Shown: one piece after another, positions 39,856-56,293 of the stretch
How the letters are laid out: each line of letters opens with the position of its first letter
How positions within the stretch are numbered: position 1 is the first letter of the stretch
Source: an uncultured Chromatiaceae bacterium
Lineage (GTDB): Bacteria; Pseudomonadota; Gammaproteobacteria; Steroidobacterales; GCA-2729495
Length of the DNA: 64,000 nucleotides
Assembly (NCBI GenBank): GCA_964371995.1
Contig: CAYJPG010000003.1
Span: 1,718 to 65,717, forward strand
Direction of reading: 5' to 3'
Position numbers and translations under genes: made by a program
The notes under the pieces: generated by a model
What the model saw: the letters and a program-made list of their open reading frames with translations, nothing else
Databases searched by the model: none
What the model was told of the DNA's origin: nothing

Positions 39856-41118
39856 ATGGCAAAGCTGACGGATATACAGATTCGCACCTGGATCAAGTCC
39901 GGCGACCGATTCGCAGGGAGGAGCGACGGCAAGGGACTGACTCTCGTGTGGCGGGATGACGACCGGGTGCCGATCTGGCGCTTTCGCTACCGCTTCGCGG
40001 GCAAGCCGCGAACGATGAACTTGGGTAGCTACACCGACCTCTCCTTGGCGAAGGCCCGCGATACTGTGGAGACACTTCGGGCGCAGGTGAAGCTCGGCCA
40101 CGATGTTGCAGGAGAGAAGCAGGAGCGGAAGAAGAAGGCTGTGGCCAAGATCGAGGCCGCGAGGTTGGTGCGCACGGTCGGCCAGTTGGCGGACGAGTAT
40201 CTGGAGCGCGTGATCATCGGCCGCTGGAAGCACCCGAATATCGTCCGCAGTCGCATCGAGCGAGACATCAAGCCGAACATCGGGCTGATGGACGCCAAGG
40301 ATGTCCGGCCGCCGCATATTGACGATTTATTGAAAAAAATCCTCGCACGCGGGGCACCTACCGTTGCCAACGACGTACTGCGATGGCTTCGACGCATCTT
40401 CAACTTCGGTATCAAACGGGGCTATTTGGAAATGAACCCGGCGGCAGCGTTTGACCTGTCGGATGCCGGTGGCCGGGAGGAAGCCCGCGACCGATGGCTG
40501 ACCCTGGATGAGTTGGTGGTCCTGTTCGAGGCGATGCGCACCACCGCCGGCTTCACCGTGCAGAATGCGCACACCGTCCGGCTGCTGCTGATGCTGGCCG
40601 TCCGCAAGCAGGAACTGATCGCCGCTCGCGTGGCCGAACTCAATCTCGACAATGCCATCTGGATGCTGCCAGCCGAACGGACAAAGACCGGCAGGGAGAT
40701 CGCTATCCCGCTGCCGCCGCAGGCCGTAGCCTCGCTGCGGGAGTTGATCCGCCTCGGCGAAGGAAGCGCGTACTTGCTCCCCGCGCGCAAGGCCCAGGAC
40801 CGGATGCTGCCCCACATACACGAGAACACGTTAAACCAGGCATTGGCAAAACTACGTTCAAAACTTGGGACCATGCCTCATTTCACGGTCCACGACTTTC
40901 GGCGGACCGCCAAGACGCAGTTGCAGGCGCTCGGTACTGCACCGTGGATTTCCGAGCGATGCCTGAACCACAAGCTCAAGGGGGTCGAGGGTCGCTATGA
41001 CCGTTACAGTTACATTGACGAGCGGCGCGAGGCCCTGGGGAAATGGGCCAACGTCCTGGAACGCTGCGAGCACGGTATCGGACAGGTGACACCGATTCGG
41101 AAGCGAGCGGGTAACTAG
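39856..41118 (+). CDS. int: tyrosine recombinase, P4-type integrase
   Basis: N-terminal arm-binding domain KLTDIQIRTWIKSG...GKGLTLVW...WRFRYRFAGKPRTMNLGSYTDLSLAKARD. Catalytic region ...HDFRRTAKTQL...LNHKLKGVEGRYDRYSY (the R..HxxR..Y pattern). Confidence 0.9.
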   Translation: MAKLTDIQIRTWIKSGDRFAGRSDGKGLTLVWRDDDRVPIWRFRYRFAGKPRTMNLGSYTDLSLAKARDTVETLRAQVKLGHDVAGEKQERKKKAVAKIEAARLVRTVGQLADEYLERVIIGRWKHPNIVRSRIERDIKPNIGLMDAKDVRPPHIDDLLKKILARGAPTVANDVLRWLRRIFNFGIKRGYLEMNPAAAFDLSDAGGREEARDRWLTLDELVVLFEAMRTTAGFTVQNAHTVRLLLMLAVRKQELIAARVAELNLDNAIWMLPAERTKTGREIAIPLPPQAVASLRELIRLGEGSAYLLPARKAQDRMLPHIHENTLNQALAKLRSKLGTMPHFTVHDFRRTAKTQLQALGTAPWISERCLNHKLKGVEGRYDRYSYIDERREALGKWANVLERCEHGIGQVTPIRKRAGN

Positions 41119-41240: not shown

Positions 41241-41477
41241 ATGTCTGAAAGCAACATTCCGGCGCTGCCGGAAGCCCTGAGGAACTTCGACGCCCTCCCT
41301 GACTCGGCCGAGGTCCGGCAACCGGTCGTTGAGGCCTTGTTCGGCATCAGCGCTGCCAGCGTCTGGCGCTGGTCACGCGCAGGCCTCTTGCCAAAGCCGC
41401 GCAAACGCGGGCTGCGCGTCACCACCTGGAATGTGGGAGAGCTGCGGGCCACCCTTCTGATGAGGGGCGTACCATGA
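41241..41477 (+). CDS. AlpA-family HTH regulator / putative excisionase
   Basis: Start chosen at ATG 41241. VRQPVVEALFGISAASVWRWSRAGLLPKPRKRGLRVTTWNVGEL matches the AlpA/phage HTH pattern. Confidence 0.7.
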   Translation: MSESNIPALPEALRNFDALPDSAEVRQPVVEALFGISAASVWRWSRAGLLPKPRKRGLRVTTWNVGELRATLLMRGVP

Positions 41478-42139
41478 AATCCAGCAGGAGCCGCACCAAG
41501 CTCGCCGACCCGCACGTTCGTCTCTATGGGTGGGAGCTGGCGTCGCCGGCCTACCGCTCGCTCTCTCCTGATGCCCGCGCGCTGCTCGTGGATTTCCGCT
41601 CACTGTTCTCCGGACGCGAGAACCGCGTGTTCTTCAGCATCCGGGACATGATGGAGAAGCTTGGCGGCACTGGTCAGGCTCGGGCAATGAACGCCCGGGA
41701 TGAGCTGCTGGATCGCGGCTGGATTCGTGAGATCGAGCGTGGCAGCTTCCACCGCAAAACACGGCTCGCAACAGTCTACGCGCTGACCAATGAGCCGATT
41801 CACCAGCGAGATGGACAGGTCGCACCAAAGGACTATATGCGCTGGAAGTCACCGAAAACGACAGTAGTTAAATTGGATACCGACAGTACCGATGCTGAAT
41901 ACCGAGTTTCGACTGAAAAAGCCGACTTTGCCGCTCACGGTAGTGAATCCGGATACCGTCAACCGGAAAAAGCACGATCCGCGGTAGCCGCCACGGGTAC
42001 ACAGATAGGTTACCAAGCGCAGCTTGATGCCCTACCACTGCTCTATGCCGCCTTCTGGTACCCGATGACTGACCAGCAGCAGATCGGCGCCATCCTGTTC
42101 GGTCTACTGAACCTATGCGAAGCCGGATCGTCCGCATGA
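41474..42139 (+). CDS. island hypothetical protein (possible winged-helix/replication-type)
   Basis: ATGA overlap with the upstream gene. No motif recognised. Its position is typical of regulatory or replication genes in small integrative elements. Confidence 0.55.
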   Translation: MKSSRSRTKLADPHVRLYGWELASPAYRSLSPDARALLVDFRSLFSGRENRVFFSIRDMMEKLGGTGQARAMNARDELLDRGWIREIERGSFHRKTRLATVYALTNEPIHQRDGQVAPKDYMRWKSPKTTVVKLDTDSTDAEYRVSTEKADFAAHGSESGYRQPEKARSAVAATGTQIGYQAQLDALPLLYAAFWYPMTDQQQIGAILFGLLNLCEAGSSA

Positions 42140-42381
42140 TCTGCCACTGCGGCGGCCAGACAATCCGAATGCGCGCCCGCGAAGGCGATGCGACGCTGAA
42201 GTGGCATCAGTGCGGCGCTTGTGGTCGATGTGACGGGTTTGAGCTGCACATCTGCGATGTACAGGCCGCAAACGGGCAAGCCGCGCGTCGGGTGTCCCAT
42301 GATTCTGCCGTAATCGCACTCATGTCCAGGCGATACCGCAAACGTGGCCGAGTCCTCGCACCTACGGAGACTGCGGCATGA
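42136..42381 (+). CDS. small Cys4 zinc-ribbon protein
   Basis: Start chosen at ATG 42136 (ATGA overlap). MICHCGG...CGACGRC. Confidence 0.5.
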   Translation: MICHCGGQTIRMRAREGDATLKWHQCGACGRCDGFELHICDVQAANGQAARRVSHDSAVIALMSRRYRKRGRVLAPTETAA

Positions 42382-42989
42382 ACGACACGATCTCGGATGA
42401 CGAAAACACCGAGTGGTCGAAGACCATGTCCGCCCATGCTCTTGATCCGCAATTCAGCGCGGCCGCCGTTTTGGATAGCTTTTCGACTAAGGAGTTCGGA
42501 AATCTCGACCTGAACACCCTCATGAGCATCCTGACCAGTGCCTGCCAGCGCATCGCCAGCGGCAATCTCGCCGACATCGAAGCCATGCTGTTCTCGCAGG
42601 CAACGGCCCTTCAAAGCATCTTTACGATGCTCGCCATGCAAGCCAGCCGTTCTCCGTGCGGCTACAAGCAGGTAGAGACCTATCTCCGGCTGGCCCTGAA
42701 ATCTCAGAACCAGTGCCGAGCCACACTGGAAACACTGGCGGCCATGAAAACCCCTCGCCAGGTGGCTTTCGTCGCCCAGACCAACATCGCCCACGGGCCG
42801 CAGCAGGTAAATAATTTTCCCGCACAAGCAGCCGGCGGGGTGGCCCCTGTCGAAAACTCGCCGAACGAACTATTGGAGAACCAGCATGGCGAACGGATGG
42901 ACACTGGAACGGCGGGTGCGGCAAGCGGAACGGATCCGAAGCTGGCAGCCGTGGAAACGGTCAACAGGGCCCCGGACCGCAGACGGTAA
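42378..42989 (+). CDS. island hypothetical protein
   Basis: ATGA overlap with the upstream gene. No motif recognised. Confidence 0.5.
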   Translation: MNDTISDDENTEWSKTMSAHALDPQFSAAAVLDSFSTKEFGNLDLNTLMSILTSACQRIASGNLADIEAMLFSQATALQSIFTMLAMQASRSPCGYKQVETYLRLALKSQNQCRATLETLAAMKTPRQVAFVAQTNIAHGPQQVNNFPAQAAGGVAPVENSPNELLENQHGERMDTGTAGAASGTDPKLAAVETVNRAPDRRR

Positions 42990-43131
42990 GGCGCGAGCCG
43001 CCCGCAACGCCTACAAGGGTGCCTGGCGTAAAGAGCTGCGTCGGTTAGCACTCCTCCTGAGAGACGCACGCCATCAGACAGTCACCGTTCGATCAACCTC
43101 ATACGGTCAGATCCTGTCGCCCGAGCCTTGA
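42886..43131 (+). CDS. island hypothetical basic protein
   Basis: An 81-aa Arg/Lys-rich ORF (RIRSWQPWKRSTGPRTADGKARAARNAYKGAWRKELR). It overlaps the previous ORF by 104 nt in another frame. Confidence 0.45.
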   Translation: MANGWTLERRVRQAERIRSWQPWKRSTGPRTADGKARAARNAYKGAWRKELRRLALLLRDARHQTVTVRSTSYGQILSPEP

Positions 43132-43178
43132 AAATTTTGTACTCTGCTGCCTCCACTTGCTCAGGATTGGCCAATCCC

Positions 43179-43415
43179 ATGTCCACGAAAAGCAGCGGAG
43201 GCGAAATCCTCACGATCAAGGACGTCGCCAAGTACCTAAAGGTCACCGAACGGACGATCTACCGGCTCGCTGGAGCCAAGAAGATTCCAGCCTTCAAGGT
43301 AGGCGGAACGTGGCGTTTTTCGCGCGTCGACATCGATAGCTGGATCAGGCAGCAATCGACCAGCAAGCCGGAACGTGCCAGGCGCGGAACATCCCATAAA
43401 GGGGAGCAGCAGTAA
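43179..43415 (+). CDS. excisionase-family (MerR-like) HTH DNA-binding protein, first gene of the defence operon
   Basis: Start chosen at ATG 43179; the ORF-track start at 43128 is TTG. ILTIKDVAKYLKVTERTIYRLAGAKKIPAFKVGGTWRFSRVDIDSWI. Confidence 0.7.
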   Translation: MSTKSSGGEILTIKDVAKYLKVTERTIYRLAGAKKIPAFKVGGTWRFSRVDIDSWIRQQSTSKPERARRGTSHKGEQQ

Positions 43416-46120
43416 TGCTTGGACTGACTCTACGAGAAGAATTCCGGGGCAAACGCCTCAAGGGCACAGCCATCGAGCTGTCCAACGACCAGAACACGGG
43501 CGCGACCCAGATTGCGGCCAAGCAGTTTCTGGATATCACCTATCCGACGCACGATCTGCTGAAAGGCATCGAAGCTGTCGGCCCCAACCAGGGCCGCCCC
43601 GTGGTCGTGATCGGCGAGCGCGGCCTTGGCAAGTCGCACTTGATGGCCGCGCTCTACCATGCGGTGACTGACCCGTTGTCGACCCGCTCGTGGCTCAACG
43701 CCTGGGCAACCACACTGGCCGACGCCAGCATCGGCAAGATCGCCCTGCGCGACGGGATGCACGTCATCGGCGAAAGCCTGCATCGCCACCGCTACAAATT
43801 CCTGTGGGATGTCCTGTTGGAGAACCATCCGCACGGCACCTTCATCAAGGGCAAGTGGGACGGCCAGGGCGCGTCCAAGACCGAAATCCCATCCGACAAG
43901 CTCATCATCGAGCTGCTGGAGAACAAGCCGACGATGCTGCTGCTGGATGAGTTCCAGACGTGGTACGACGGCCTCACCAACACCAAGCAGTACCCGTGGA
44001 AGAACTGGGCGTTCAACTTCATCCAGATTCTTTCGGAAATCGCCAAAGAAAGGCCAGACCTGCTAGTGCTGGTGATCTCGGTGCGTAACGGTGGCAGCGA
44101 CGCATATCAGCAGGTTCATCGTGTCAACCCGGTCGCCATCGACTTCAAGGCAGGCGGCAGCGCTGAGCGCATCCAGCAGGATCGCCGCCGCATGCTGTTG
44201 CACCGCTTGTTCGACAACCGCTTGCAGATCGCCAGCGGCACCATCGAATCGCTGGTCGCGCAGCACGTCGCTGAATCCTTCCGCCTGCTCGATGTGCCGT
44301 CCGCCGAGCAGGAGCGCAAGCGCCGAGAGTTCACCGAATCGTGGCCCTATGCACCGCACCTGCTGCGCCTACTGGAAGAGCAGGTGCTGATCGCCACCGA
44401 TGCGCAGGAAACGCGCGACCTGATTCGCATCCTCGCCAACCTCTACAAGAGCGGTGGCGAGGCCGTGCCCGTGCTCACCGCCGCCGACTTCCGGCTGGAC
44501 GACGATACCTCGGGCATCGGCGCGCTGCTCGAAGCCGTCGCCAACCAGCACCACCGCACGCTGCGCGACAAGGCGCAGCAGAACATCATCTCGGTGCAGG
44601 AAGCGCGGCACGACCACGTCAGCGGTGCGCCACACCTACAGGAAATCATCGGCGCACTGTGGCTGCGCTCGATCGCCGTCGGCAACCTCGCCGGAGCTGA
44701 ACCCGCCACGCTGCAACTGGACATCACCCGTGACAAGCCGGTGGACGACAACGCTTTCCAGGTCGAGTTGGCGACCATCGTGGAGAACAGCTTCAACATT
44801 CATCAGGAAGGCACCAAGCTGTTGTTCCGTGAGGAAGAGAACCCGCGCGCCAAGCTCATGGCCTATGCGCGCAACGACAAGCTGTTCGCCGACGGGGCGG
44901 ATCAGGAGCAGCTCGTCAGGCAGGTGCGCTACGTCATCGGCGGCAGCGACGAGGTCGCAAAGACCTTCCGCGTGATCGCCCTGCCGAAGTCGTGGGTCAA
45001 TGATCCTTGGACAGCGCTCGATGAAGCCGAGCAACCCGACAAGTGGGACGACCGTCTGCCCATCCTCGTGCTGCCCGAGGAAGCCGACAAGCTCGACGCA
45101 ACGCTGGGCCGCTGGCTCAAAGACCAGTTGCAGAAGCGCCGCAACACCGTGCGCTTCCTGCTACCGCGCGCGGGCAGTACCAACTCCTTTATGGATCACG
45201 ACCTGCTCATCCTCACCCGCGCCGCAATGAAGGCGCAGGAATGGGGCGGTCAGAACCCCGAATACAAGAAGCTGCACAAAGAGTTCGAAAATACCCTGCG
45301 CGACAACCTCAAGAAGCGCTTCGACCGCTTCGCCGTGCTGCAACGCTGGAACTTCGCCGACCCCGCGCAGTGCAAGTTCAGCGTCGAACCTCTCGACAAG
45401 CAGGGCTCGCAGATTCCCGAAGCCATCGAGGAGGCGCTGACCGGCGACCTTTTCGTGCCCGAGGACTTCGAGGAACTGGTGATCGAGTACGCCAGCAACA
45501 ACGAATCGGTCGGTAAGCTGCTGCGCGAGTTGCAGGAGCCGCGCCCTGCCGGCCAGGACTGCATCCCGTGGCTCGGCGAAACGGCAATGAAGGAACGCCT
45601 GCTGCGTCTGTGCGCCAAGGGCAAGGTCGCCATCAACTTGCGCGGCATGGAGTACCTGCAAACGAGCCCAGGCGAAGACGAGGACACCGCGTGGCGTCGG
45701 TTGCGGCCCAAGCTCTCGCTGACGGGTCGCCACCTCGACGACGTGTTTGTGATGTTGCCCTCGGCAGTCCCAGCCACCGGCGGCTCCACGCCATCGGCTC
45801 TGACGCCAGTAGCACTTGGTGAGGCGCCGCCCACATCCGGCAATGAATTTCCCCCAGCTATATCGCCAACGTCCACGTCGCACCGCATCTTCGACGACGG
45901 CAGCAGCACCACCAAGCCGCGCACGCCGCTGTCAAACCCGGCTACGTCACCGCTCAACCTGATCGGCAAAATCGAGGGGTGGGGCATCGGCCCGGCCACC
46001 AAGGTCGCGGAGGTGTCCATCAAGGTATCAGCCGCCACCGGAGCGCAGCTCAAGGAACTGCTCAAGAAGCTGCCCGAAGGCATGAGCTTCGAGCTGAACC
46101 TTGAGAAGGAGGACGATTGA
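43415..46120 (+). CDS. DUF499-type P-loop ATPase (BrxC/HmaC-like)
   Basis: TAATG overlap with the HTH gene. Walker A VIGERGLGKSHLMAAL, Walker B PTMLLLDEFQTW. Size and overall layout are as I recall for COG1483/DUF499 proteins. A P/S/T-rich linker precedes a small C-terminal domain. Confidence 0.75.
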   Translation: MLGLTLREEFRGKRLKGTAIELSNDQNTGATQIAAKQFLDITYPTHDLLKGIEAVGPNQGRPVVVIGERGLGKSHLMAALYHAVTDPLSTRSWLNAWATTLADASIGKIALRDGMHVIGESLHRHRYKFLWDVLLENHPHGTFIKGKWDGQGASKTEIPSDKLIIELLENKPTMLLLDEFQTWYDGLTNTKQYPWKNWAFNFIQILSEIAKERPDLLVLVISVRNGGSDAYQQVHRVNPVAIDFKAGGSAERIQQDRRRMLLHRLFDNRLQIASGTIESLVAQHVAESFRLLDVPSAEQERKRREFTESWPYAPHLLRLLEEQVLIATDAQETRDLIRILANLYKSGGEAVPVLTAADFRLDDDTSGIGALLEAVANQHHRTLRDKAQQNIISVQEARHDHVSGAPHLQEIIGALWLRSIAVGNLAGAEPATLQLDITRDKPVDDNAFQVELATIVENSFNIHQEGTKLLFREEENPRAKLMAYARNDKLFADGADQEQLVRQVRYVIGGSDEVAKTFRVIALPKSWVNDPWTALDEAEQPDKWDDRLPILVLPEEADKLDATLGRWLKDQLQKRRNTVRFLLPRAGSTNSFMDHDLLILTRAAMKAQEWGGQNPEYKKLHKEFENTLRDNLKKRFDRFAVLQRWNFADPAQCKFSVEPLDKQGSQIPEAIEEALTGDLFVPEDFEELVIEYASNNESVGKLLRELQEPRPAGQDCIPWLGETAMKERLLRLCAKGKVAINLRGMEYLQTSPGEDEDTAWRRLRPKLSLTGRHLDDVFVMLPSAVPATGGSTPSALTPVALGEAPPTSGNEFPPAISPTSTSHRIFDDGSSTTKPRTPLSNPATSPLNLIGKIEGWGIGPATKVAEVSIKVSAATGAQLKELLKKLPEGMSFELNLEKEDD

Positions 46121-47109
46121 TGGCACTGACCGCCAGCGCCTTGCAGGCCCTGACCCAAGGCTCCGACGCGGATGCTTGGCGCGTCATTGTTGAGCAGGCC
46201 GTCGAGATCGCCCGAAAGCCGCTGGCCGCAGGCAATTCGCCCAGCGAAGTCGTCGGGCGCGACCGCGAAATCGGCGCACTGGATCTGTTCCTCTCTTCCA
46301 GCGGCTGGGACTTGTGGCACGCCTTCGGCGACAGCGTGGAGCGCACCTCGGATCGCCTGACACGCTGGTGGGCCGAACCCTTCAGCGCCAAGGCGGTGCT
46401 GATCCTCGACGGCCTTTCCCTGCGCGAACTGCCGTGGCTGTTGCAGGGCGCGAAGGTGCGCGGTTTCACCACGCACGAGGTCGCTGCCTGCGCCTCCGAG
46501 CTGCCGGGCGAAACGGATGAGTTCGCTCGCGCGCTCGGCTTCGCCAGCCGCAGCAAACTCCAGAACAACGGCGGCGGCCTCGCGCACAAGCTGCAAGCCG
46601 CCAGCACCGAAACCGTCGACTTGCCGTGGAAGGACTGCCAAGCCCTGATCGGCAGTGCGCCGAACCAGGTCTTCTGGCACCACTGGCCCGACGCCAAGCT
46701 GCACGACGGCGCAGGCGCAGGCCAGGGGCTGGAGCCGTTAACCAAGGACGTGGCCGAGCAGTTGTCCAGCGATGACTTCTGGGCCTTCGTCGAGCGCCTC
46801 GCCACCGGGCGGCGGCTGGTCATCACCTCCGACCACGGCTACGCGGCCACCGGCCACTTCTCCGATGCCGATAGCGAGGTCGGCCATTTCCTCAAGCAGA
46901 CGTTTGGAAGCTCGCGCAGCAAGGCGGGAACCGGCGACACCGGCCCATTCGTGCCGCCAGTGGCATTGCAGATCAACAGCCCTCACGGCGCGCACCTGTT
47001 GGCCCTGGGCCGCAGGAAATGGCGCAGCCAGGGCGGCTACCCGACGCTCACGCACGGCGGCCTGTCGCTGCTGGAAGTGCTGTCGCCTTTCGTGGAGATC
47101 AGTAAATGA
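46120..47109 (+). CDS. short PglZ-like alkaline-phosphatase-superfamily protein
   Basis: TGATG overlap with the ATPase gene. Ordered landmarks: AVLILDGLSLRELPWLL, ELPGETDEFA, LVITSDHGYAATG, THGGLSLLEVLSPFVEI. Confidence 0.6.
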   Translation: MALTASALQALTQGSDADAWRVIVEQAVEIARKPLAAGNSPSEVVGRDREIGALDLFLSSSGWDLWHAFGDSVERTSDRLTRWWAEPFSAKAVLILDGLSLRELPWLLQGAKVRGFTTHEVAACASELPGETDEFARALGFASRSKLQNNGGGLAHKLQAASTETVDLPWKDCQALIGSAPNQVFWHHWPDAKLHDGAGAGQGLEPLTKDVAEQLSSDDFWAFVERLATGRRLVITSDHGYAATGHFSDADSEVGHFLKQTFGSSRSKAGTGDTGPFVPPVALQINSPHGAHLLALGRRKWRSQGGYPTLTHGGLSLLEVLSPFVEISK

Positions 47110-47594
47110 CATACACGGATGACGAATTGACCCGACTGATCGGCTGCAAAAAACGCATTTCCCAGGCGCCGAGGAAGGAGATGCGCACAGAGGGCCAGAT
47201 GCAGCGTAACGAATTGGAGCTTGAGTCGTTGGACGGCAAGCACTCGTTCCGTGTTTTCATGCGTCAGAGCCTGCAATTTTCTGAAAATTTTTCCATCGGG
47301 ATGGACTACCTGCCCAAGGATGAACCGGGCAGTTTCTGTCTCCTGCGCTGCAATGGAAGACATGGTGGACACAAGGTGCATCCACACCATCTGCATTGCC
47401 ATGTTCATCGCAGCAAGGCCGAAGACGTCAACGCTGGGCTTCGAGTCGAACGACATATCGACTCCACAGTGGAATATGCAGCTTTTCGCGATGCGCTGCG
47501 TTATTTCCTGCTCAGGACGAATGTGCAATCAGCGGATTTGTCCCAACATTTTCCGGGCATCACCCAACCTGACATGTTTGAAGACGAGGCATAG
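47106..47594 (+). CDS. hypothetical His-rich protein (embedded, lower GC)
   Basis: ATGA overlap with the upstream gene. LLRCNGRHGGHKVHPHHLHCHVH cluster. No family recognised. Confidence 0.55.
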   Translation: MTYTDDELTRLIGCKKRISQAPRKEMRTEGQMQRNELELESLDGKHSFRVFMRQSLQFSENFSIGMDYLPKDEPGSFCLLRCNGRHGGHKVHPHHLHCHVHRSKAEDVNAGLRVERHIDSTVEYAAFRDALRYFLLRTNVQSADLSQHFPGITQPDMFEDEA

Positions 47595-47596
47595 CC

Positions 47597-48370
47597 ATGA
47601 AAGCCATCGACCTACTCCAAAAACAATTCGGTGACTTCGTTCGTCTGGAGGAAAAGCGCCCGAACATCCAGCAGGTTTATGCGCCTCTCTACCATGAAGA
47701 CGGCGACATGATGGATCTTTTTCTCGATCTTCCCAAAGATGCCAATCTGACGGAAGACAAAGAGATTCGTATTTCCGATCACGGCATGACCTTGATGCGG
47801 CTCTCCTACGGCTTCGATCTGGATACGCCCAACAAGGAAAAAATATTCCAGCGCATCCTGCTCGAAAACGGTGTCAGCGAGAACGAAGGGGAAATCTATC
47901 TTGAAACCACGTCGGGTTCCCTATATCCGGCGTTGATGCAGTTCTCCCAAGCCATTGGCAAGGTCTGCAACATGCGCTTGTTCCGGCGCGAGACATTGCA
48001 CAGTCTGTTTGAAGAAATGCTCGGAGATTTTATCCGGGGAACGCTTGCTCGCTATCAGCCGACACCTTCGATTTGCCCCATTCCCGACAGGGACGATCTG
48101 GAAGTGGATTGGCAGTTCAAGCCGAATGGCACTCCCTTGTATCTGTTCGGCGTCAAGGACAACGCCCGCGCCCGGCTATCCACCATCAGTTGCCTTGAAT
48201 TTCAGCGCAACAAGCTGCCTTTCCGCAGCATGATCGTGCATGAAGACTTCGACAAGATCTGGCGCAAGGACAAGGCACGCCTGACATCGGCCTGCGACAA
48301 GCAATTCACATCGCTGGATGATTTCAAACAAAACGCAGAGCAATACCTGCTGCGTGAAACAGGGCATTGA
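47597..48370 (+). CDS. hypothetical protein (embedded, lower GC); resembles my recollection of DUF1828/DUF1829 proteins
   Basis: 2-nt gap from the upstream stop. N-terminal pattern YAPLYHEDGDMMDLFLD...IRISDHGMTLMRLSYGFDLDTPNKEKIFQRILLENGV. The family guess is unverified. Confidence 0.5.
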   Translation: MKAIDLLQKQFGDFVRLEEKRPNIQQVYAPLYHEDGDMMDLFLDLPKDANLTEDKEIRISDHGMTLMRLSYGFDLDTPNKEKIFQRILLENGVSENEGEIYLETTSGSLYPALMQFSQAIGKVCNMRLFRRETLHSLFEEMLGDFIRGTLARYQPTPSICPIPDRDDLEVDWQFKPNGTPLYLFGVKDNARARLSTISCLEFQRNKLPFRSMIVHEDFDKIWRKDKARLTSACDKQFTSLDDFKQNAEQYLLRETGH

Positions 48371-48376
48371 CGGCTG

Positions 48377-51300
48377 ATGGCCACCAAAAAAGAACTTCTC
48401 CAACAAGAAGTCGCGAAAGCCGTCGGCGCAGGCAAGGCGGTCGCGCTCGAAACGGTTGACTTCAACGACCCGAACCGCCCCAAAACCTGCCTGGAAGTGG
48501 ATTTCCCGATCCTACCGGTCAATCAGGTGGCGATCATCGAAGGCAACGCGGGCAAGCCGATCTACCAGATGTCGAAGTGGTGGGCGCGTCGGCGTTCCAG
48601 CGTGTTCCGCTCGATGCTGATCGCGGCGGCCACCAAAGCGCCGGACGACCCTTCGCACGCAGCCAAGCTGGTGTGGGACAACTACTACGCCAACCACCAG
48701 AAGAAAGGCGCGTTCAAGCACCTGAAGGTCGCCGACATCTTCATGGGCGGTGGCACCACGCTGGTGGAAGGCTCGCGCCTTGGCATGCAGATGGTCGGCA
48801 ACGACCTCAACCCGGTCGCGTGGTTCGTGGTCAAGCAGGAACTCGCTAATGTCGATCTGGAGCAGGTGAAAAAACTCCTCGCCGACATCGAGGCCGAGGT
48901 CAAGCCGCAGATCATGCCGTACTACTACTGCGACGGCCCGCAGGGTGAAAGGGGCACGTGGACGCACCTGCCGACGAACAAGGCAATGCCCGCCGACTTC
49001 GACCCGCTCGCCATCCCGCGTGACGAGCGCAAGGACTACCGCTACGAAGGCCCGGAGATCATCTACACCTTCTGGGCCAAGCACGGCCCCTGTCAGGTGA
49101 CGGGCTGCGGCCACCGGACGCCGATCATGACCAGCCCGGTGATGGCGGTGAAGACGCTCACCGTCAAGCATTGGACACACACCTGCGGCAAGTGCGGCGA
49201 AGCCTTCGACGTGGAGGAAGAAGCCGCGCGCATGGCACCCGATGCGCCGTTCTACGTCGCGCCCACCGAAGCTCCGTATTCCGTGCTCGACCGCAAGAAG
49301 GGCGTGATCTGCCCGCACTGCGGCCACACCGCAATGGTGAATCTCGGCAAGGGCAAGAACAAGAAGGTGGAACTGAGCCTGTTGGTCCATCCGCAATGGC
49401 TGGCGGGCGAGGCGAAGCAGGATGCAAACGGTCAGCCCTACGGCGGTTCGGCGCAGGACGATGTGGCGGCGACCACCCGTTGGGATGCGGCACGCGCTGC
49501 GAAGATTCGTCTGCTGGAAGTGCGCGGCGCGCTGCCGGATGAAGTGATTGACCCGGAGACGGGTGTCTCCTTCGCACCCAAAAAGGGCACGGTGCCGAAG
49601 AAGTCGCACTACGCCTGCTCGGCGTGCGGGACCGTGCAAGATGTCCTGGGCACCATCAAGGCGACGGGCAAGACGGGGCCGATGGCGGCCTACGCGGTGC
49701 AGGGTTACTCCCCGAAGCGAGATGAAGCGGGCAAACCCTACAGCGGTCGCTTCTTCGCCGCCCATGACGCGGCACACGCCAGGCAATGCGCGGCTGCATT
49801 CGCGGAGTGGGAAGCGCGGAAGGATGACGACCTAAAGGCCTATTGGCCGCGCTCAGAAGTGCCTTTTGGATTCATGACGCACATGAACAATGGCGGCATT
49901 CCAAACCACGGCTATACCCATTGGTGGACTATGTTTAACCCCCGCCAGTTGCTTGCGCAAGCGCAGATACTGAAGGGAATTCTGACTATTGGAGACTATC
50001 CTTGGGGGGTTAGAGAGGCGCTTCTAGGAGCATTCCAGCAGATCGTCCGCTATCGGAACATGTTCTGTTTCTGGGATATCAACTACGACAAGTTGGTGCC
50101 CCACATGAGCAATAACAACTACCACCCCAAGACGAACGTAGTCGAGGGATCTTGCTTTGGTGTCATGGGGAGTGGGCGCTGGTCTTCTTGTGCAGATGGC
50201 GTCTTGGAGGGGCTCGAATGGGGGGGGAATCCTTATGAGCTCGTTAGCCCCCAGTTTGTGTCTAGCGTTCGAAGCGACGGGGCTGAGAAGTCAACTAGCG
50301 AGAAAGTCTTTACTGGAGATCCAGTTCTTGCCGTGACGGTTCGTCAGGGTTCTTCCACTGAGCTGGATAGCATTGATTCCAGCAGCCTCGACCTGGTCAT
50401 CACCGATCCGCCCTTCGGCGGCCTTCTGCACTATTCGGAGCTTGCAGACTTTTTCTACGTTTGGTTGCGTCTTGCGCTGAAGGACAAGTACCCGGACTAC
50501 TTCACCGCCGACTACACGCCAAAGTCACTGGAGGCTGTGGCCAACAAAGCGCGCGAACCGGAAGACCCGGACGGGTTTTATCAGCGGCTGCTCACCCAAT
50601 GCTGGCGCGAAGCGCATCGTGCGCTCAAGCCCAGCGGCATCCTGGCCTTCACTTTCCACCACAGCGAAGATGAGCCGTGGGTGGCAGTGCTGGAATCGCT
50701 GTTCGACGCGGGCTACTACCTCGAAGCAACGTACCCCATCCGCTCAGATGAGACCAAGGGAGAAGGCGGGAAGCCCGGGACCTTTGGCTCGCAGACTATC
50801 GAGTACGACATCATCCACGTCTGCCGCAAGCGCACCGAAGAACCCAAGGCGGTGAGTTGGGGCCGGATGCGCCGCGAGGTGATGGCCGACGTGCGCCAGT
50901 TGCAGGCGATGTTGGAGAACCACGCCAAGGAAGGCTTGCCCGCCGCCGACATCCAGGTGATCCGGCGCGGCAAGGCGCTGGAATACTTCTCGCGTCACTA
51001 CGGCAAGGTGTATGTGGACGAAGACCGCACCATCTCCGTGCGCGACGCGCTGGTGGGCATCAACCAGCTCATCGACGAGGACGCCGACAAGGGCAAGGAA
51101 CCGCCGCCGGTCAACGCCGAGCCGATCACGCGCCAGTTCCTGCGCACCTTCGGCAACGCGCCTGAGCTCAAGCGCGACCAGTTGCAAAAGTTCCTCAAGG
51201 GGTCGATCACCACGCCGGACGAGTTCGCGCAGCGCGGCTGGTGTGCGGAGAAGAACAAGGTGTTCACCCGCACCGATGCGCTGGAATTCGCCCGCGAGTG

Positions 51301-51595
51301 GTCGGGCAAGCATCGCCGCAAACTGACGTCCGACCTGGATCAGGCGCTGGTGCTGATCGGCGCGTGCTTCGACGGCAGCGGCATCAATGCGTCGGACACG
51401 CTAAAGAACGACAACTTCAAGCCGCACGTGGCGCTGAAGCCCTTGCTGGAATGGCTGCACCGCAACGGCCCGGATCAGACCACCCGCAATGCGGCCTCGC
51501 GTGCAGTGTCCATCCACAATGTTTGGCACGCCAGCCAGGTGCCGCAGCCCGCGCAGGCTTCCTTGTTCGATGACGATGGGGAGTACGAGCGATGA
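48377..51595 (+). CDS. DUF1156-type Zn-ribbon DNA methyltransferase (PglXI/HmaB-like)
   Basis: N-terminal DFPILPVN...SKWWARRRS. SAM motif ADIFMGGGTTLVEG. Four CxxC-type pairs (CQVTGCGH, CGKCGEAF, CPHCGH, CSACGT). Catalytic LVITDPPFGG. Confidence 0.85.
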   Translation: MATKKELLQQEVAKAVGAGKAVALETVDFNDPNRPKTCLEVDFPILPVNQVAIIEGNAGKPIYQMSKWWARRRSSVFRSMLIAAATKAPDDPSHAAKLVWDNYYANHQKKGAFKHLKVADIFMGGGTTLVEGSRLGMQMVGNDLNPVAWFVVKQELANVDLEQVKKLLADIEAEVKPQIMPYYYCDGPQGERGTWTHLPTNKAMPADFDPLAIPRDERKDYRYEGPEIIYTFWAKHGPCQVTGCGHRTPIMTSPVMAVKTLTVKHWTHTCGKCGEAFDVEEEAARMAPDAPFYVAPTEAPYSVLDRKKGVICPHCGHTAMVNLGKGKNKKVELSLLVHPQWLAGEAKQDANGQPYGGSAQDDVAATTRWDAARAAKIRLLEVRGALPDEVIDPETGVSFAPKKGTVPKKSHYACSACGTVQDVLGTIKATGKTGPMAAYAVQGYSPKRDEAGKPYSGRFFAAHDAAHARQCAAAFAEWEARKDDDLKAYWPRSEVPFGFMTHMNNGGIPNHGYTHWWTMFNPRQLLAQAQILKGILTIGDYPWGVREALLGAFQQIVRYRNMFCFWDINYDKLVPHMSNNNYHPKTNVVEGSCFGVMGSGRWSSCADGVLEGLEWGGNPYELVSPQFVSSVRSDGAEKSTSEKVFTGDPVLAVTVRQGSSTELDSIDSSSLDLVITDPPFGGLLHYSELADFFYVWLRLALKDKYPDYFTADYTPKSLEAVANKAREPEDPDGFYQRLLTQCWREAHRALKPSGILAFTFHHSEDEPWVAVLESLFDAGYYLEATYPIRSDETKGEGGKPGTFGSQTIEYDIIHVCRKRTEEPKAVSWGRMRREVMADVRQLQAMLENHAKEGLPAADIQVIRRGKALEYFSRHYGKVYVDEDRTISVRDALVGINQLIDEDADKGKEPPPVNAEPITRQFLRTFGNAPELKRDQLQKFLKGSITTPDEFAQRGWCAEKNKVFTRTDALEFAREWSGKHRRKLTSDLDQALVLIGACFDGSGINASDTLKNDNFKPHVALKPLLEWLHRNGPDQTTRNAASRAVSIHNVWHASQVPQPAQASLFDDDGEYER

Positions 51596-52089
51596 GACAA
51601 CTGCGCGACCCAGTCTGGCAGGTGCGCGGCACCAGTTGGGTATGGGACGAAGAGGCGCGCAACCAGGTCTGCACGGCCAGCGAGGTTTGGAGCCTGCGCC
51701 AGTTCCTGCGGGCGAAAGGAAACTGGCCGGATGCTCTTCCGAGCAACGGTGGCAGGACGCTGGTGGTGGCCGGTCTGGACGGAAGCCTCGATCTGCTGAC
51801 ACCGACGGATGCCGAAGTGTGGCTAGGTGATGCGATCAAACCCGCCATCCTGTCCTTTCAGGACGATTGGGGAAGCGACGGCGCACTGGTGTTCTGGCTA
51901 CCCGGCGGCCACAACCGCGTCAGGGCGCACGCCGCCACCGATGAGGTGGGCTGGCTGTGTCACGCACCCCATGGGCATCAGATCGACCTCGGTCGCATCC
52001 TGTGGGGCCAAGCCAACGAGTACCCGCAGGAAATCCTGCTGCACCACGGTGGCAAGCCCGCTGGCCTGTTCCACCTGCGGATTACTTGA
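51592..52089 (+). CDS. hypothetical protein coupled to the methyltransferase
   Basis: ATGA overlap with the methylase stop. 165 aa. GC content is like the rest of the operon. No motif recognised. Confidence 0.55.
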   Translation: MRQLRDPVWQVRGTSWVWDEEARNQVCTASEVWSLRQFLRAKGNWPDALPSNGGRTLVVAGLDGSLDLLTPTDAEVWLGDAIKPAILSFQDDWGSDGALVFWLPGGHNRVRAHAATDEVGWLCHAPHGHQIDLGRILWGQANEYPQEILLHHGGKPAGLFHLRIT

Positions 52090-52099
52090 GGGCGGCTGA

Positions 52100-54874
52100 G
52101 TGACGGCAGAGATTCAGTTCCAACCCGGCGAGCGCATCACCCACCACGAATACGGTCAAGGTGTCGTCCTCGACCCGGCGCGTGACGGCTATCTGCGTGC
52201 GTTTTTCGGCGTCGGCGAACGCCGGGTGCCGGTGGCGTCGCTGCGGCGCGAACTAACGCGCACCGAGCGTATCCTGCGCACCGTGGATGGCGGCGCAGAG
52301 CGGTCGCGCAAGGCGTGGCTGGCCTATGAAGCGCATGCACTTCCGGTGATGGAAAGCGCCTCGGCGCTGACCTCGGCCAAGATCGATCTGCTGCCGCATC
52401 AGGTGGTGCTGACTCACCGGATTGCGACCGCCTCACCCCGGCGTTACCTGATCGCCGACGAGGTGGGGCTAGGCAAGACCATCGAAACCGCGCTGATCCT
52501 TCGCGAGCTGGCCAGCCGGGGTGAATTGACTCGCGCGCTGATGGTGGTGCCTGCGGGCCTCGTGAACAACTGGCACCGCGAGCTGAACGAGGTGTTCAAC
52601 CTCGACTTCGAGGTGTTCGGTTCCGAGGGCGACATCACCGACCGCAAGACCAACGCCTTCGCCAAGCACGACCGGCTGATCGCCAGCATCGATACGCTGA
52701 AGCGCCCGGCACGCATCAAGCGCCTGCTGGACGCGCCGCGCTGGGATCTGGTGGTGTTCGACGAAGCGCATCACCTCACGGCCTACAAGACCGGCGGCAA
52801 GGTGCGCAAGACCGAGAACTACAAGCTGGCCGAGGCGCTGAAAGATCATTCGCGCGACCTGCTGCTGCTGTCGGCCACGCCGCACCAAGGCAATCACTTC
52901 CAGTTCTGGATGCTGGCGCAACTGCTGAACCCGACGCTGTTCCGCAGCCCCGAGGAGATGCTGGAGGAGAGGCACCGGCTCAACACAGTGATGTTCCGCC
53001 GCACCAAGGCTGACGCCTGTCAGCCCGATGGCTCGCCGCTGTTCGCGCGGCGCTGGGTTCATACCGAATCCTTCGTGATGAACCCAGCCGAACGGCTGTT
53101 TTACGAGAAGCTGCGCGAGTACTTGGAGGATGGCTTCGACCTCGCACGCCGCCAAGGCAACCAGGGGCGTGCGCTGGGCTTCCTGATGGTGATCTTCCAA
53201 AAGATCGCGGCGTCGAGCTTCGCCGCCGTGCGCCGCACCCTCAAGCGCCGCATGCTGATGCTGACGCTGCACGAGGCGTTCCTGCGCGACAAGGAACTGG
53301 ACATCGAAGGCCGCGAGCGCCTGACCGAGGAGGCGCGCGAGCTGATCCACGAGGAGTTTGGACTGCCGCGCGACAGCGTCGGGCGCAGTGAGGTGGATCG
53401 CGTGCTGGCCGATCTGAAGTACCGGCTGGTCAAGAAGCTGGACGAAGAGGCGCTGGAGATGGCCTCCGACCCCTATGCCAGCGAGTATTCCGCCACGCAC
53501 GCGGAAGAAGCCGCTTCGGCGGTGGTGAACCTGCATCTGCCCGAGGAGCGCCTGCGCATCGGCGACCTGCTGCGCGTGTTCCCGGCAGAGCGCGAAACCA
53601 AGATGCAAAAGCTGCTCGATGGCTTGGGCACGCTGTGGCGGCAGAACCCCAACGAGAAGATCGTGATCTTCGCCACCTACCTCGGCACGGTGGACATGAT
53701 CGCCCGGGAGATCGAACAGACCTTCCCCGGCCAGGGCGTCGCCGTGCTACGCGGCGGTGATCACGGCGCGAAAGTAGCGGCGGAGCGGCGCTTCCGCCTG
53801 AAGGACGGCCCACGCGTGCTGGTCTGTACAGCGGCCGGGCGCGAAGGTATCAACCTCCAGTTCGCACGCGTCTTGTTCAATTTCGACCTGCCGTGGAATC
53901 CGATGGACATGGAGCAGCGCATCGGGCGCATCCATCGCTATGGCCAGAGCCATACCGCGCAGGTCTACAACCTCGTGCTCTCGGACACCATCGAAGGCCG
54001 CATCTTCCTGCTGCTCGACGAGAAGCTCACCGAGATCGCCCGCACGGTCGGCAAGGTGGATGACCAGGGCAACGTGGCCGAAGACCTGCGCGCGCAGATT
54101 CTCGGCCAGTTGTCGGAACGCTTGAACTACGACCGGCTGTATCAGGAGGCGCTGTCCGACCCAGAGCTGAAACGCACGCAGGTGGAGCTGGAAGCGGCGC
54201 TGTCGAACTCCCGCGAGGCGCGGCAGGTGGTGTTCGATCTATTCCAGGACCTCGATGGATTCAGCCTCGACGACTACAAGCCCTTCTCGGACGTATCGTC
54301 CAGTCTGGATCGGTTGGTGCGCTTTTTCTCGGTGGCGGTCGCGGATCGCCAGCAGAAACTGGTGAAAGTGGACGATGCCACCTACGACCTCGTTACCGCC
54401 GAAGGCTCGCGCCGCGTCCGCTTTACCTTGAACCGCGAAGCGGCGACGAATCAGGACGCGTTGCAACTGATGGGCTTGGATCACCCGTTGGTGCAAGAGG
54501 AACTGGGGCGCTGGCGCAGCGTGCCACCGGAGGAAATCGGTATCGCCGTGTCGGGCGACGTGGACGAGCCGGTACTGTTGTCGCTGTGGATGGTTGAGGC
54601 GTCCGTCGGCAACGGGGAGCGCCGTGTGGTGGTGCAGCCCATTGCTGTGAAACTGGATGGCACACGCATCCCGGCGGTCGAACGCCTGTGTGAGCAATAC
54701 CTACAGGCTCCACCCGCCACACCGGTGTTTCGACCGGAACAGCGAAGCGAGCTGTTTACCCTGGCCGTTGAGCCGACCTTACAGCGGGAACTGAAGCACA
54801 AGGGAACCGCGAATGGCGATGGCAGCTATTCTGCGGAACTGATCGGGTATGTGGAGATCGCCCCACAGCAGTGA
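52100..54874 (+). CDS. SNF2-family helicase (BrxHII/HmaA-like) with an N-terminal Tudor/DUF3553-like module
   Basis: GTG start 10 nt after the upstream stop. LLPHQ, motif I DEVGLGKT, motif II FDEAHHL, III LLLSATPHQG, VI QRIGRIHRYGQ. N-terminal PGERITHHEYGQGVVLD...AFFGVGERRVPVASL. Confidence 0.9.
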   Translation: MTAEIQFQPGERITHHEYGQGVVLDPARDGYLRAFFGVGERRVPVASLRRELTRTERILRTVDGGAERSRKAWLAYEAHALPVMESASALTSAKIDLLPHQVVLTHRIATASPRRYLIADEVGLGKTIETALILRELASRGELTRALMVVPAGLVNNWHRELNEVFNLDFEVFGSEGDITDRKTNAFAKHDRLIASIDTLKRPARIKRLLDAPRWDLVVFDEAHHLTAYKTGGKVRKTENYKLAEALKDHSRDLLLLSATPHQGNHFQFWMLAQLLNPTLFRSPEEMLEERHRLNTVMFRRTKADACQPDGSPLFARRWVHTESFVMNPAERLFYEKLREYLEDGFDLARRQGNQGRALGFLMVIFQKIAASSFAAVRRTLKRRMLMLTLHEAFLRDKELDIEGRERLTEEARELIHEEFGLPRDSVGRSEVDRVLADLKYRLVKKLDEEALEMASDPYASEYSATHAEEAASAVVNLHLPEERLRIGDLLRVFPAERETKMQKLLDGLGTLWRQNPNEKIVIFATYLGTVDMIAREIEQTFPGQGVAVLRGGDHGAKVAAERRFRLKDGPRVLVCTAAGREGINLQFARVLFNFDLPWNPMDMEQRIGRIHRYGQSHTAQVYNLVLSDTIEGRIFLLLDEKLTEIARTVGKVDDQGNVAEDLRAQILGQLSERLNYDRLYQEALSDPELKRTQVELEAALSNSREARQVVFDLFQDLDGFSLDDYKPFSDVSSSLDRLVRFFSVAVADRQQKLVKVDDATYDLVTAEGSRRVRFTLNREAATNQDALQLMGLDHPLVQEELGRWRSVPPEEIGIAVSGDVDEPVLLSLWMVEASVGNGERRVVVQPIAVKLDGTRIPAVERLCEQYLQAPPATPVFRPEQRSELFTLAVEPTLQRELKHKGTANGDGSYSAELIGYVEIAPQQ

Positions 54875-55636: not shown

Positions 55637-56293
55637 ATGTCTGTGCCGGATTTGCCGCAAACGGAAAGCAGCGGGCCGACGACCGGCACACTGTTCGTGC
55701 TCTCTGCGCCCTCCGGCGCCGGAAAGACCACGCTGGTCAAGGCCCTGATGGCGCGCGATCCGGATCTCTGCTTCTCCGTCTCTTTCACCACGCGCAAACC
55801 ACGGCCAGGTGAAGTACCGGAACGCGATTATTTCTTCGTGGATGAGGCCCGCTTTGGGGCGATGGTCGCAGCCGGTGAGTTTCTGGAACATGCCCGCGTA
55901 TTCGGCAACCTCTATGGCACCAGCCGCACGCAGGTCAATGCCATACTCGCCAAAGGGCGGAACGTGCTGCTTGAGATTGACTGGCAGGGCGCGCGACAGA
56001 TCCGGAAGAATGCGCCGCACTGCTGTTCGATCTTCATCATGCCGCCCAGCGCAACTGAACTCGAACGCCGCTTGCGCAGCCGGGCGACAGATTCTGAAGA
56101 CGTGATCCGGCAGCGCCTCAGCCAGGCCTTCGACGATATGGCGCACTGGCACGAGTTTGACTACGTGGTGATCAACAGCGACCAGCGACGGGCCTGCGAT
56201 GACCTTGGCGCCATTATTCAGGGCCGCGGACAACACCTGTCAGCTGCTTCGGCTGAGCGCGCCGAGGCGGTCAAGGCAATCATTGCAGGCTGA
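55637..56293 (+). CDS. gmk: guanylate kinase
   Basis: LFVLSAPSGAGKTTLVKAL...SVSFTTRKPRPGE..G.DYFFV...EIDWQGA. Confidence 0.95.
   Translation: MSVPDLPQTESSGPTTGTLFVLSAPSGAGKTTLVKALMARDPDLCFSVSFTTRKPRPGEVPERDYFFVDEARFGAMVAAGEFLEHARVFGNLYGTSRTQVNAILAKGRNVLLEIDWQGARQIRKNAPHCCSIFIMPPSATELERRLRSRATDSEDVIRQRLSQAFDDMAHWHEFDYVVINSDQRRACDDLGAIIQGRGQHLSAASAERAEAVKAIIAG

Follow-up and report, generated by a model that had tools for sequence, protein, structure and literature searches.

A two-gene DUF6978/DUF1828 cassette in a variable slot of a Type-3 BREX-related operon as a candidate anti-phage module

A stretch of 64,000 nt from the genome of an uncultured Chromatiaceae bacterium (assembly GCA_964371995.1, contig CAYJPG010000003.1, positions 1,718 to 65,717; hereafter the window) carries a methylation-based defence operon that can be assigned by its gene content to the Type-3 BREX-related (BR) systems. 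Between the PglZ-like gene and the methylase gene of this operon lie two small genes, designated here A and B, which are poorer in G+C than the flanking operon genes and are joined to them by tight junctions. The locus raises the question of whether the two genes are a component of the host operon or a guest in it and, in the latter case, what they may do there. The comparisons described below make it very probable that the segment is an optional, horizontally exchanged cassette. That this cassette is an autonomous candidate defence module is the reading favoured here, although with considerably less assurance.

The A/B segment and the slot between the PglZ-like and methylase genes

Gene A (47106–47594, plus strand, 162 aa) encodes a divergent DUF6978-family protein, and gene B (47597–48370, plus strand, 257 aa) encodes a protein with an N-terminal DUF1828 domain and a predicted restriction-endonuclease-like domain at the C-terminus. 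The left junction (47095–47109, plus strand) consists of the last codons of the PglZ-like gene, including a GGAG Shine–Dalgarno sequence, and of an ATGA overlap formed by the stop of this gene at 47109 and the start of A at 47106. The stop of A at 47594 and the start of B at 47597 are separated by a 2-nt gap. At the right junction (48371–48376, plus strand), the 6-nt spacer CGGCTG separates the stop of B at 48370 from the methylase ATG at 48377. Both reading frames, the overlap and the two gaps agree with those given in a preliminary description of the locus, which had also held the segment to be lower in G+C content (GC) than its flanks.

The sliding-window profile bears out this last claim. 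The GC of the segment (1,265 nt) is 0.521, which is about 4 standard deviations (SD) below the window mean of 0.622 for windows of the same length (SD 0.026), and no other 1,265-nt window in the whole 64 kb is lower (fraction at or below = 0.0008). GC and third-codon-position GC (GC3) are 0.524 and 0.601 for A and 0.518 and 0.651 for B, versus 0.61–0.67 and 0.75–0.85 for the five flanking operon genes; compared with all long open reading frames (ORFs) of the window (GC3 0.72 ± 0.066), however, the GC3 of A and B is just about 1–2 SD low. GC at the first and second codon positions (GC1 and GC2) is likewise reduced (GC2 of 0.37 in A and 0.34 in B versus 0.40–0.51), so that amino acid composition explains part of the dip. 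An antisense ORF of 163 aa (47037–47528, minus strand) covers most of gene A and misled the automatic longest-ORF call; it is probably spurious, because the frame of A is the one kept among homologues.

An unbiased survey anchored on PglZ comprised 80 operons from named species-representative genomes (75–94% PglZ identity), which belong to Beta-, Gamma- and Alphaproteobacteria, Verrucomicrobia, Planctomycetes and Acidobacteria, with one Synechococcus and one Solidesulfovibrio. According to the tblastn analysis, A and B occur in none of these 80 closest operons. The PglZ-like gene is kept in all 80, and the five operon genes other than A and B, PglZ included, are present wherever the contig permitted. 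The pair is missing even from the operon L019, although the methylase of this operon is 98% identical to that of the window. Among 72 scorable PglZ/methylase junctions, 48 are empty and 24 contain other cassettes. The preliminary description had proposed a laterally acquired accessory pair nested in a host system, and had set against this the outcome that homologues of the pair always stand at the same position in related operons. With two thirds of the junctions empty and one third taken by other cassettes, the survey speaks for the accessory pair, as do the scattered position of the pair-bearing operons in the tree and the occurrence of the pair outside BR operons, both described below.

Some of the other occupants of the slot are recognised stand-alone defence systems, namely, SIR2 with HerA (~2.9 kb), IetA with an S8 protease (~3.7 kb; IetA E = 2e-145), and Ppl (934 aa, E = 2e-137). 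The others include an unknown gene of 306–312 aa (L036, L039, L079, and L082), a 158-aa gene (L060), and a 197-aa gene (L083), none of which has a match in Pfam or PADLOC, as well as a 249-aa protein followed by a PIN-domain protein (L040) and a set of 253-aa and 190-aa proteins (L070). Among the two-gene occupants of L040 and L070, the check covered the second gene of L040, which is the PIN-domain protein. By the same logic as applied to A/B, at least five further cassettes of the slot can be considered additional uncharacterised defence candidates. All the other inserts are lower in GC than the adjoining PglZ gene (0.46–0.585 versus 0.52–0.68), and several of them also use ATGA-type coupling; both features are general to slot occupants and not peculiar to A/B.

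As for the empty junction, in the closest relatives of the window it contains a conserved 15-nt spacer (TAA GGATTGCGGCTG ATG), with variants in other subclades. The CGGCTG of the right junction corresponds to the last 6 nt of this spacer. The C-terminal end of PglZ reads E-I-S-K-stop in pair-bearing operons (window, L011, L001, and L004) and E-L-T-K-stop in empty ones (L015–L028).

Context look-ups started from A or B homologues revealed the pair at the same slot in L001, L004, L008, and L011–L014. In L001, A and B are 79% and 90% identical to those of the window, versus 76–90% for the flanks. The corresponding values for the sister operon L011 are 91% and 93% versus 85–96%, and here the pair and the flanks alike show about 90% nucleotide identity to the window. 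Since L011 has the pair at the same spot and with the same GC deficit, the acquisition of the pair is not private to the source genome. Taken alone, these look-ups suggest a core, co-inherited component, but with A or B as their starting point they are biased towards pair-bearing loci; the view of a core component was rejected on the strength of the PglZ-anchored survey (0 of 80). In the neighbour-joining tree constructed for DUF499 and PglZ, the pair-bearing operons (window, L011, L004, L001, and L104) are scattered among empty ones and those with other cassettes.

The related operons are mosaic, as is evident from the central region of the methylase gene. Window positions 49577–50777, within this gene, are 99–100% identical to L019, versus 89–97% for the rest of the gene, and other relatives show 53–65% identity in this region. 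This central part contains a second GC dip (0.53–0.56 at 49800–50400) and looks like a horizontally swapped target-recognition insert. Insertion of the cassette by a transposon- or integron-type mechanism was rejected, as neither flanking direct or inverted repeats, nor a cassette integrase or transposase, nor an att-like spacer repeat was found. An own transcription unit was rejected as well: promoter-like sites were found nowhere in the region of 42.8–55.4 kb, and terminator-like matches were at chance level. Given the mosaic operons and the lack of repeats, an internal promoter, and a convincing terminator, homologous recombination via the conserved flanks appears to be the simplest route of exchange, and it is probably in this way, through the highly conserved flanking genes, that the slot gains and loses the cassette.

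In related operons, two more insertion slots were observed, one between the methylase gene and a conserved gene encoding a 165-aa protein and another between the latter and the helicase gene (L015, L008, L011–L013, L022, L023, L031, L040, L044, L071, L077, and L090); both are empty in the window. Their contents include an AAA_15/21 ATPase and DUF4276 pair in L011–L013 and a DUF6932 gene with a 71-aa gene in L008. In L180 (2922–8340), an Iet cassette and a shortened A–B pair are seemingly stacked in one slot that contains many split genes. This may reflect either decay of the slot or indel errors of long-read assembly, and L180 was not used as evidence.

The pair outside the host operon and its predicted proteins

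An A-anchored metagenome search using a 10-sequence alignment yielded 80 loci with 40–90% identity. The two genes, which the preliminary description had treated as a unit, indeed travel together in varied contexts: B is located directly after A in 74 of the 75 loci with sufficient contig. The informative loci number 56, including two from a viral-contig scan. In 13 of them (23%) the pair is embedded in a BR operon, without exception in the PglZ/methylase slot, and in 43 it is found elsewhere. In L117 it is nested in a Type III restriction system, with Res on one side and Mod on the other; in L159, L162, and L160 it directly follows Type III Mod-Res or Res genes; in L173 and L148 it abuts Type IIG enzymes; and in L122 it follows a UvrD/GajB-like helicase. 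The locus L107 represents a bare 1.3-kb islet between sarcosine-oxidase-type genes, with A being 70% identical and the GC of the pair being 0.45 versus 0.67 for the flanks. Several further loci have the pair in housekeeping or unknown neighbourhoods. In nearly all long loci, the GC of the pair is equal to or below that of the surroundings.

The pair was also found in phages. The temperate Pseudomonas phage 5371 and two related phages encode a 172-aa DUF6978 protein and a 258-aa DUF1828 protein, with a 4-nt overlap between the genes. In these phages they are located directly downstream of cI on the same strand, and the pair of the metagenomic locus L181 is in a comparable position downstream of a LexA-like repressor. 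Among sequenced phages, three records match B and none match A; for A, tblastn comparison with collections of phages and plasmids was negative. The gene order of S24/cI-type repressor, 79–84-aa ORF, DUF6978, and DUF1828 recurs in phage 5371 (L095, PQ758388.1, 40144–41736) and in the metagenomic L181/L182 (6912–9259), so that expression may be linked to the repressor or the unit may comprise three genes.

Comparison of A with the Pfam family DUF6978 (PF22398) gives 15.1 bits (E = 0.029), which is under the gathering threshold of 29.6 bits; the scores of its relatives P0100 and P0106 (26–28 bits) are sub-threshold too. The 172-aa protein of phage 5371, with 46.2 bits, is a genuine member of DUF6978. 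According to the analysis in the hhalign program, the profile of A matches this phage protein with 99.2% probability (E = 2e-19, 136 columns), which places A in a divergent branch of the DUF6978 superfamily. In addition, A matches phrog_27326 (E = 2e-15). No PADLOC v2 model matches A at E ≤ 1. An exhaustive profile search (E ≤ 1e-3) assigned 1,179 clusters at 50% identity to the A family, and almost all members are stand-alone proteins of 155–175 aa.

The AlphaFold model of A (predicted local distance difference test score, pLDDT, 89; predicted template modelling score, pTM, 0.84) shows an N-terminal helix, an antiparallel sheet of 6–7 strands, and C-terminal helices. Comparison of this model with the PDB gave no significant fold match (best E = 0.16), and its sole match among predicted viral structures is an uncharacterised siphovirus protein (template modelling score, TM, 0.55). 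Residues invariant across the family are C14, K16, E60-N-F-S-x-G65, R81-x-N83-G84-x-H86, H95, H99, and H101. The preliminary description had pointed to a dense His/Cys cluster suggesting metal binding. The histidines H86, H95, H99, and H101 are conserved family-wide, whereas the cysteine of the ‘HCH’ string is replaced by F or Y in relatives, so that the term His cluster is preferable; such a cluster is compatible with a metal site.

The peptide strings quoted in the preliminary description are present, and the string of B had been likened there to DUF1828/DUF1829. The former assignment holds: residues 30–123 of B match positions 2–91 of the 91-position DUF1828 model (PF08861) at 63.3 bits (E = 2.6e-17), the cut-off being 22. 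DUF1829 was not detected in B by the Pfam scans. B also matches phrog_5059 (E = 1e-24) and, over the N-terminal 150 aa only, the PADLOC model PDC-M24B (E = 2.4e-14). The strongest conservation in the DUF1828 domain is observed for the family-invariant acidic motif H33-E-D-G-D-M38, together with D61, G63, R68, D76, and E90.

As for the C-terminal half of B, it has no match in the Pfam, NCBIfam, and PADLOC scans. In the AlphaFold model (pLDDT 88.8) the C-terminal domain displays an alpha-beta-beta-beta-alpha-beta topology, which would be compatible with a PD-(D/E)XK nuclease core. The Foldseek program indicates similarity with Cdn1 (probability 0.98) and 3cxj (0.99), followed by Hjc, BbvCI, SfsA, and Can1, with E ≥ 3e-3 and TM ≤ 0.31. 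In this domain, at least 97% of family members retain E140 and D171, and B also has K187. Profile searches with A and B against all PDB chains produced nothing usable.

Possible roles of the pair

In the reading favoured here, the segment is an optional two-gene cassette in a variable PglZ/methylase slot of a Type-3 BR (Hma-type) operon and a self-contained, horizontally exchanged unit found in methylation-based operons, as a bare islet, and beside temperate-phage repressor genes. The pair would most likely provide a second, independent line of defence against phages, with transcription shared with the host system and translation coupled to it. B may be the effector, with the acidic HEDGD motif of its DUF1828 domain binding metal and its C-terminal domain binding or cutting nucleic acid; this suggestion is based on the fold matches to Can2-family and Hjc-type nucleases and on the family-wide invariant acidic and histidine residues. 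A would then be a metal-binding partner with a histidine cluster that senses infection or restrains B. This division of the pair into effector and regulator is proposed tentatively, as one possibility; the second effector or abortive-infection add-on suggested in the preliminary description is likewise hypothetical. In practical terms, the cassette represents a cheaply testable candidate anti-phage system: it comprises two genes in 1.3 kb, has over 1,000 sequence clusters and no characterised relative, and its small subunit has no structural neighbour among solved proteins.

Several observations weigh against this reading. For A, comparisons with PDB folds and PDB-chain profiles yielded no informative neighbour in structure or sequence, and literature searches retrieved no functional study of DUF1828, DUF6978, or PDC-M24. 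The canonical acidic residue of the (D/E)xK motif is absent from B (F-G-V-K187), and K187, E201, H215, and D217, which are invariant in the close relatives of B, are replaced in the phage homologue (K187 by N); nuclease activity of B, while plausible, is therefore uncertain. In addition, the identity of A and B in BR-embedded copies follows that of the flanks, which could mean that the pair has long resided in the host system and become part of its function, and is not autonomous, and about 40% of the contexts place the pair within or next to methylation-based systems, as would also suit a dependent accessory role.

The main alternative is that the pair is a guard similar to PrrC, held latent by the restriction or BR complex and firing once a phage anti-restriction protein disables this complex. 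Such an arrangement is well established for PrrC, which is embedded in type I restriction loci. Besides the 13 of 56 informative loci in BR operons, at least six more are in or abut Type III or IIG systems; a stop/start overlap with the neighbouring restriction gene is frequent, translational coupling is conserved, and the identity of A/B co-varies with the host operon. However, most copies, including the islet L107 and the cI-adjacent phage copies, lack a methylase or restriction gene within 8 kb, and a specific protein–protein latch is difficult to square with host systems that belong to unrelated types. On balance, a guard function is considered unlikely, although it is the strongest of the competing explanations. 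If the pair does depend on restriction-type neighbours, it would represent a new case of layered immunity guarding a first-line system. Somewhat more doubtful still is the bolder proposal that DUF6978 and DUF1828 constitute a new widespread two-gene anti-phage system, in which the fold of the small subunit and its histidine metal centre have no counterpart in solved structures and which is wired preferentially into methylation-based immunity (BR/Hma and Type III and IIG restriction) as a guard that would fire once phage anti-restriction factors disable these systems.

A toxin–antitoxin-type addiction module, with B as the toxin and A as the antidote, would stabilise the operon or the island and have no direct antiviral role. 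In line with this explanation, the two genes form an obligate, tightly coupled unit whose upstream member is small, and the pair is mobile, low in GC, and patchily distributed; moreover, classical toxin–antitoxin pairs flank related operons. Yet scans against Pfam, PADLOC, PHROG, and NCBIfam found no similarity to known toxin or antitoxin families, A exceeds the typical size of an antitoxin and its model contains no DNA-binding fold, and both the cI-adjacent prophage position and the use of the slot by defence systems argue for immunity. This explanation is regarded as improbable.

A phage origin, in which the operon would have captured genes for anti-defence or regulation, would account for the PHROG matches of both proteins, for the homologous pair in temperate Pseudomonas phages, and for the siphovirus protein with the fold of A. 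It is nevertheless highly improbable, considering that the pair is co-oriented and translationally coupled in defence operons of many unrelated hosts, that matches in sequenced phages are as rare as noted above, and that the phage copy is on the repressor (lysogeny) side, which is usual for prophage exclusion and not for early anti-defence genes. Finally, the idea that A and B are a core host component, for example, an iSTAND or sensor subunit, whose GC dip is a matter of amino acid composition only, agrees with the identical position and composition in L001, L004, L008, and L011–L014, with identity that tracks the flanks, and with the low GC1 and GC2, but is scarcely credible, as the pair is missing from all 80 closest operons while these retain all five other genes, the role of conserved small gene falls to the 165-aa ORF and not to A or B, the GC3 of A/B is 15–25 points under that of the flanks, the pair occurs outside BR operons, and neither of the predicted folds is a P-loop.

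The host operon and comparison with known systems

The operon that hosts the favoured second-line module begins with a small HTH_17-like ORF (43128–43415, plus strand), 60% identical to the HTH_17 gene preceding DUF499 in L011, and continues with the gene of a 901-aa DUF499 AAA+ ATPase (43415–46120, plus strand; Pfam PF04465, E = 9.6e-9). The left wall of the slot is the gene of a putative standalone PglZ-like phosphatase of 330 aa with a T-S-D-H-G-Y motif (46117–47109, plus strand). Its position and size fit the standalone PglZ of Type-3 BR systems, and it shows a weak match to NCBIfam BREX_PglZ_3 (E = 9e-4) at the C-terminus only. The right wall is the gene of a 1,072-aa DUF1156-type N6-adenine methylase (48377–51595, plus strand), in which a hypervariable target-recognition insert is nested and which matches PADLOC HmaB (E = 1.4e-34) and NCBIfam DUF1156_antiphage (E = 1e-24, below the NCBIfam equivalog cut-off).

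The methylase gene is followed by the gene of the conserved 165-aa protein (51592–52089, plus strand), present in every related operon reaching that far, with or without a cassette. This protein has no family match in the Pfam, NCBIfam, or PADLOC scans and is likely a candidate iSTAND component of the Type-3 BR system. The last gene encodes a SNF2-family helicase of 924 aa (52100–54874, plus strand) with Pfam SNF2-rel_dom and Helicase_C domains and with similarity to PADLOC BrxHI (E = 4e-102) and HmaA (E = 2e-92); the Pfam, PADLOC, and NCBIfam scans detected no nuclease domain or fusion in it. Judging by the DUF499 ATPase, the DUF1156 methylase with a nested target-recognition domain, and the nuclease-less SNF2 helicase, the host operon is a Type-3 BR operon of the Hma type.

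Upstream of the operon, a tyrosine integrase gene (39856–41118; Arm-DNA-bind_3 and Phage_integrase domains) is separated from it by two unannotated ORFs (41474–42139 and 42378–42989). Downstream, the housekeeping genes gmk and spoT/relA are located at 55637–56293 and 56772–58946. Taken together, the integrase on one side and these genes on the other suggest that the whole operon sits on an integrase-associated island. The 64-kb window contains no tRNA genes. Elsewhere in the window, a very large ORF of 2,044 aa was observed (11069–17203, minus strand).

Type-3 BR systems, whose operons were formerly named Hma, comprise a DUF499 ATPase, a nested-TRD (target-recognition domain) methylase, a nuclease-less BrxHII-like helicase, a standalone PglZ, and iSTAND (NAR 2026, PMC12839542). 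The host operon has the ATPase, methylase, and helicase of this defining set, with the PglZ-like gene and the conserved 165-aa gene as candidates for the other two components; A and B are extra. The same paper lists five components, states that conserved standalone nucleases are lacking, and mentions neither DUF1828 nor DUF6978 in its text or supplements (PMC12839542).

Embedded genes are common in Hma systems: they were reported in 62.7% of 1,485 systems as 376 distinct cassettes, and of nine embedded candidates put to the test, seven gave protection from phage (Payne et al., bioRxiv 10.1101/2024.01.29.577857). A further 145 ‘PDC’ candidates were derived from BREX, DISARM, and type I restriction systems (bioRxiv 10.1101/2024.01.29.577857). 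The ‘guilt-by-embedding’ cassettes of Payne et al. (HEC and PDC) are likewise nested between Hma core genes, missing from sibling systems, and also found elsewhere, and they too share slots with known defence systems. The A/B pair has the same hallmarks, being located between core genes, absent from related systems, and common outside the host. In contrast to the published cases, the host here is the PglZ-containing Type-3 BR subtype; the A/B pair is not among the nine HECs, and the PglZ/methylase slot is not described in that work.

The closest likeness to a listed candidate concerns PDC-M24, a two-gene cassette (FAM_00129>>FAM_00065) with a DUF1828-type second gene of ~255 aa, which was first found inside BREX, DISARM, or type I restriction systems. 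The L005 copy of B matches PDC-M24B at E = 3e-17. However, the match of B is limited to its N-terminal 150 residues, and A has no PDC-M24A match even at E ≤ 1; the A/B pair can therefore be considered a sister family and not a member of PDC-M24.

PrrC in EcoprrI and BrxU in BREX similarly represent extra effectors nested in and co-expressed with methylation-based operons, but neither PrrC, whose anticodon nuclease is accompanied by an ABC ATPase, nor BrxU, a type IV enzyme of the GmrSD kind, is related to A or B in sequence or fold. The best structural match of B is with the Can2/Card1/Cdn1 proteins, which consist of a sensor domain and a PD-(D/E)xK nuclease (PMC12825302). B shares with them the two-domain layout and the C-terminal restriction-endonuclease-like domain; the TM-score is 0.31 at 12% identity, though, the N-terminal domain of B is DUF1828 and not a Rossmann-type CARF, B is devoid of the middle catalytic acidic residue, and there is no cyclic-oligonucleotide synthase near the pair. 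The phage 5371 pair, being located downstream of cI, resembles in position RexAB of phage lambda, a two-gene exclusion module beside cI, without homology between them.

The embedding of genes in Hma systems has already been published. What is new here is this particular pair, its obligate linkage, the range of its contexts, and the definition of the PglZ/methylase exchange slot, which extends the ‘guilt-by-embedding’ approach to the Type-3 BR subtype and yields more candidates.

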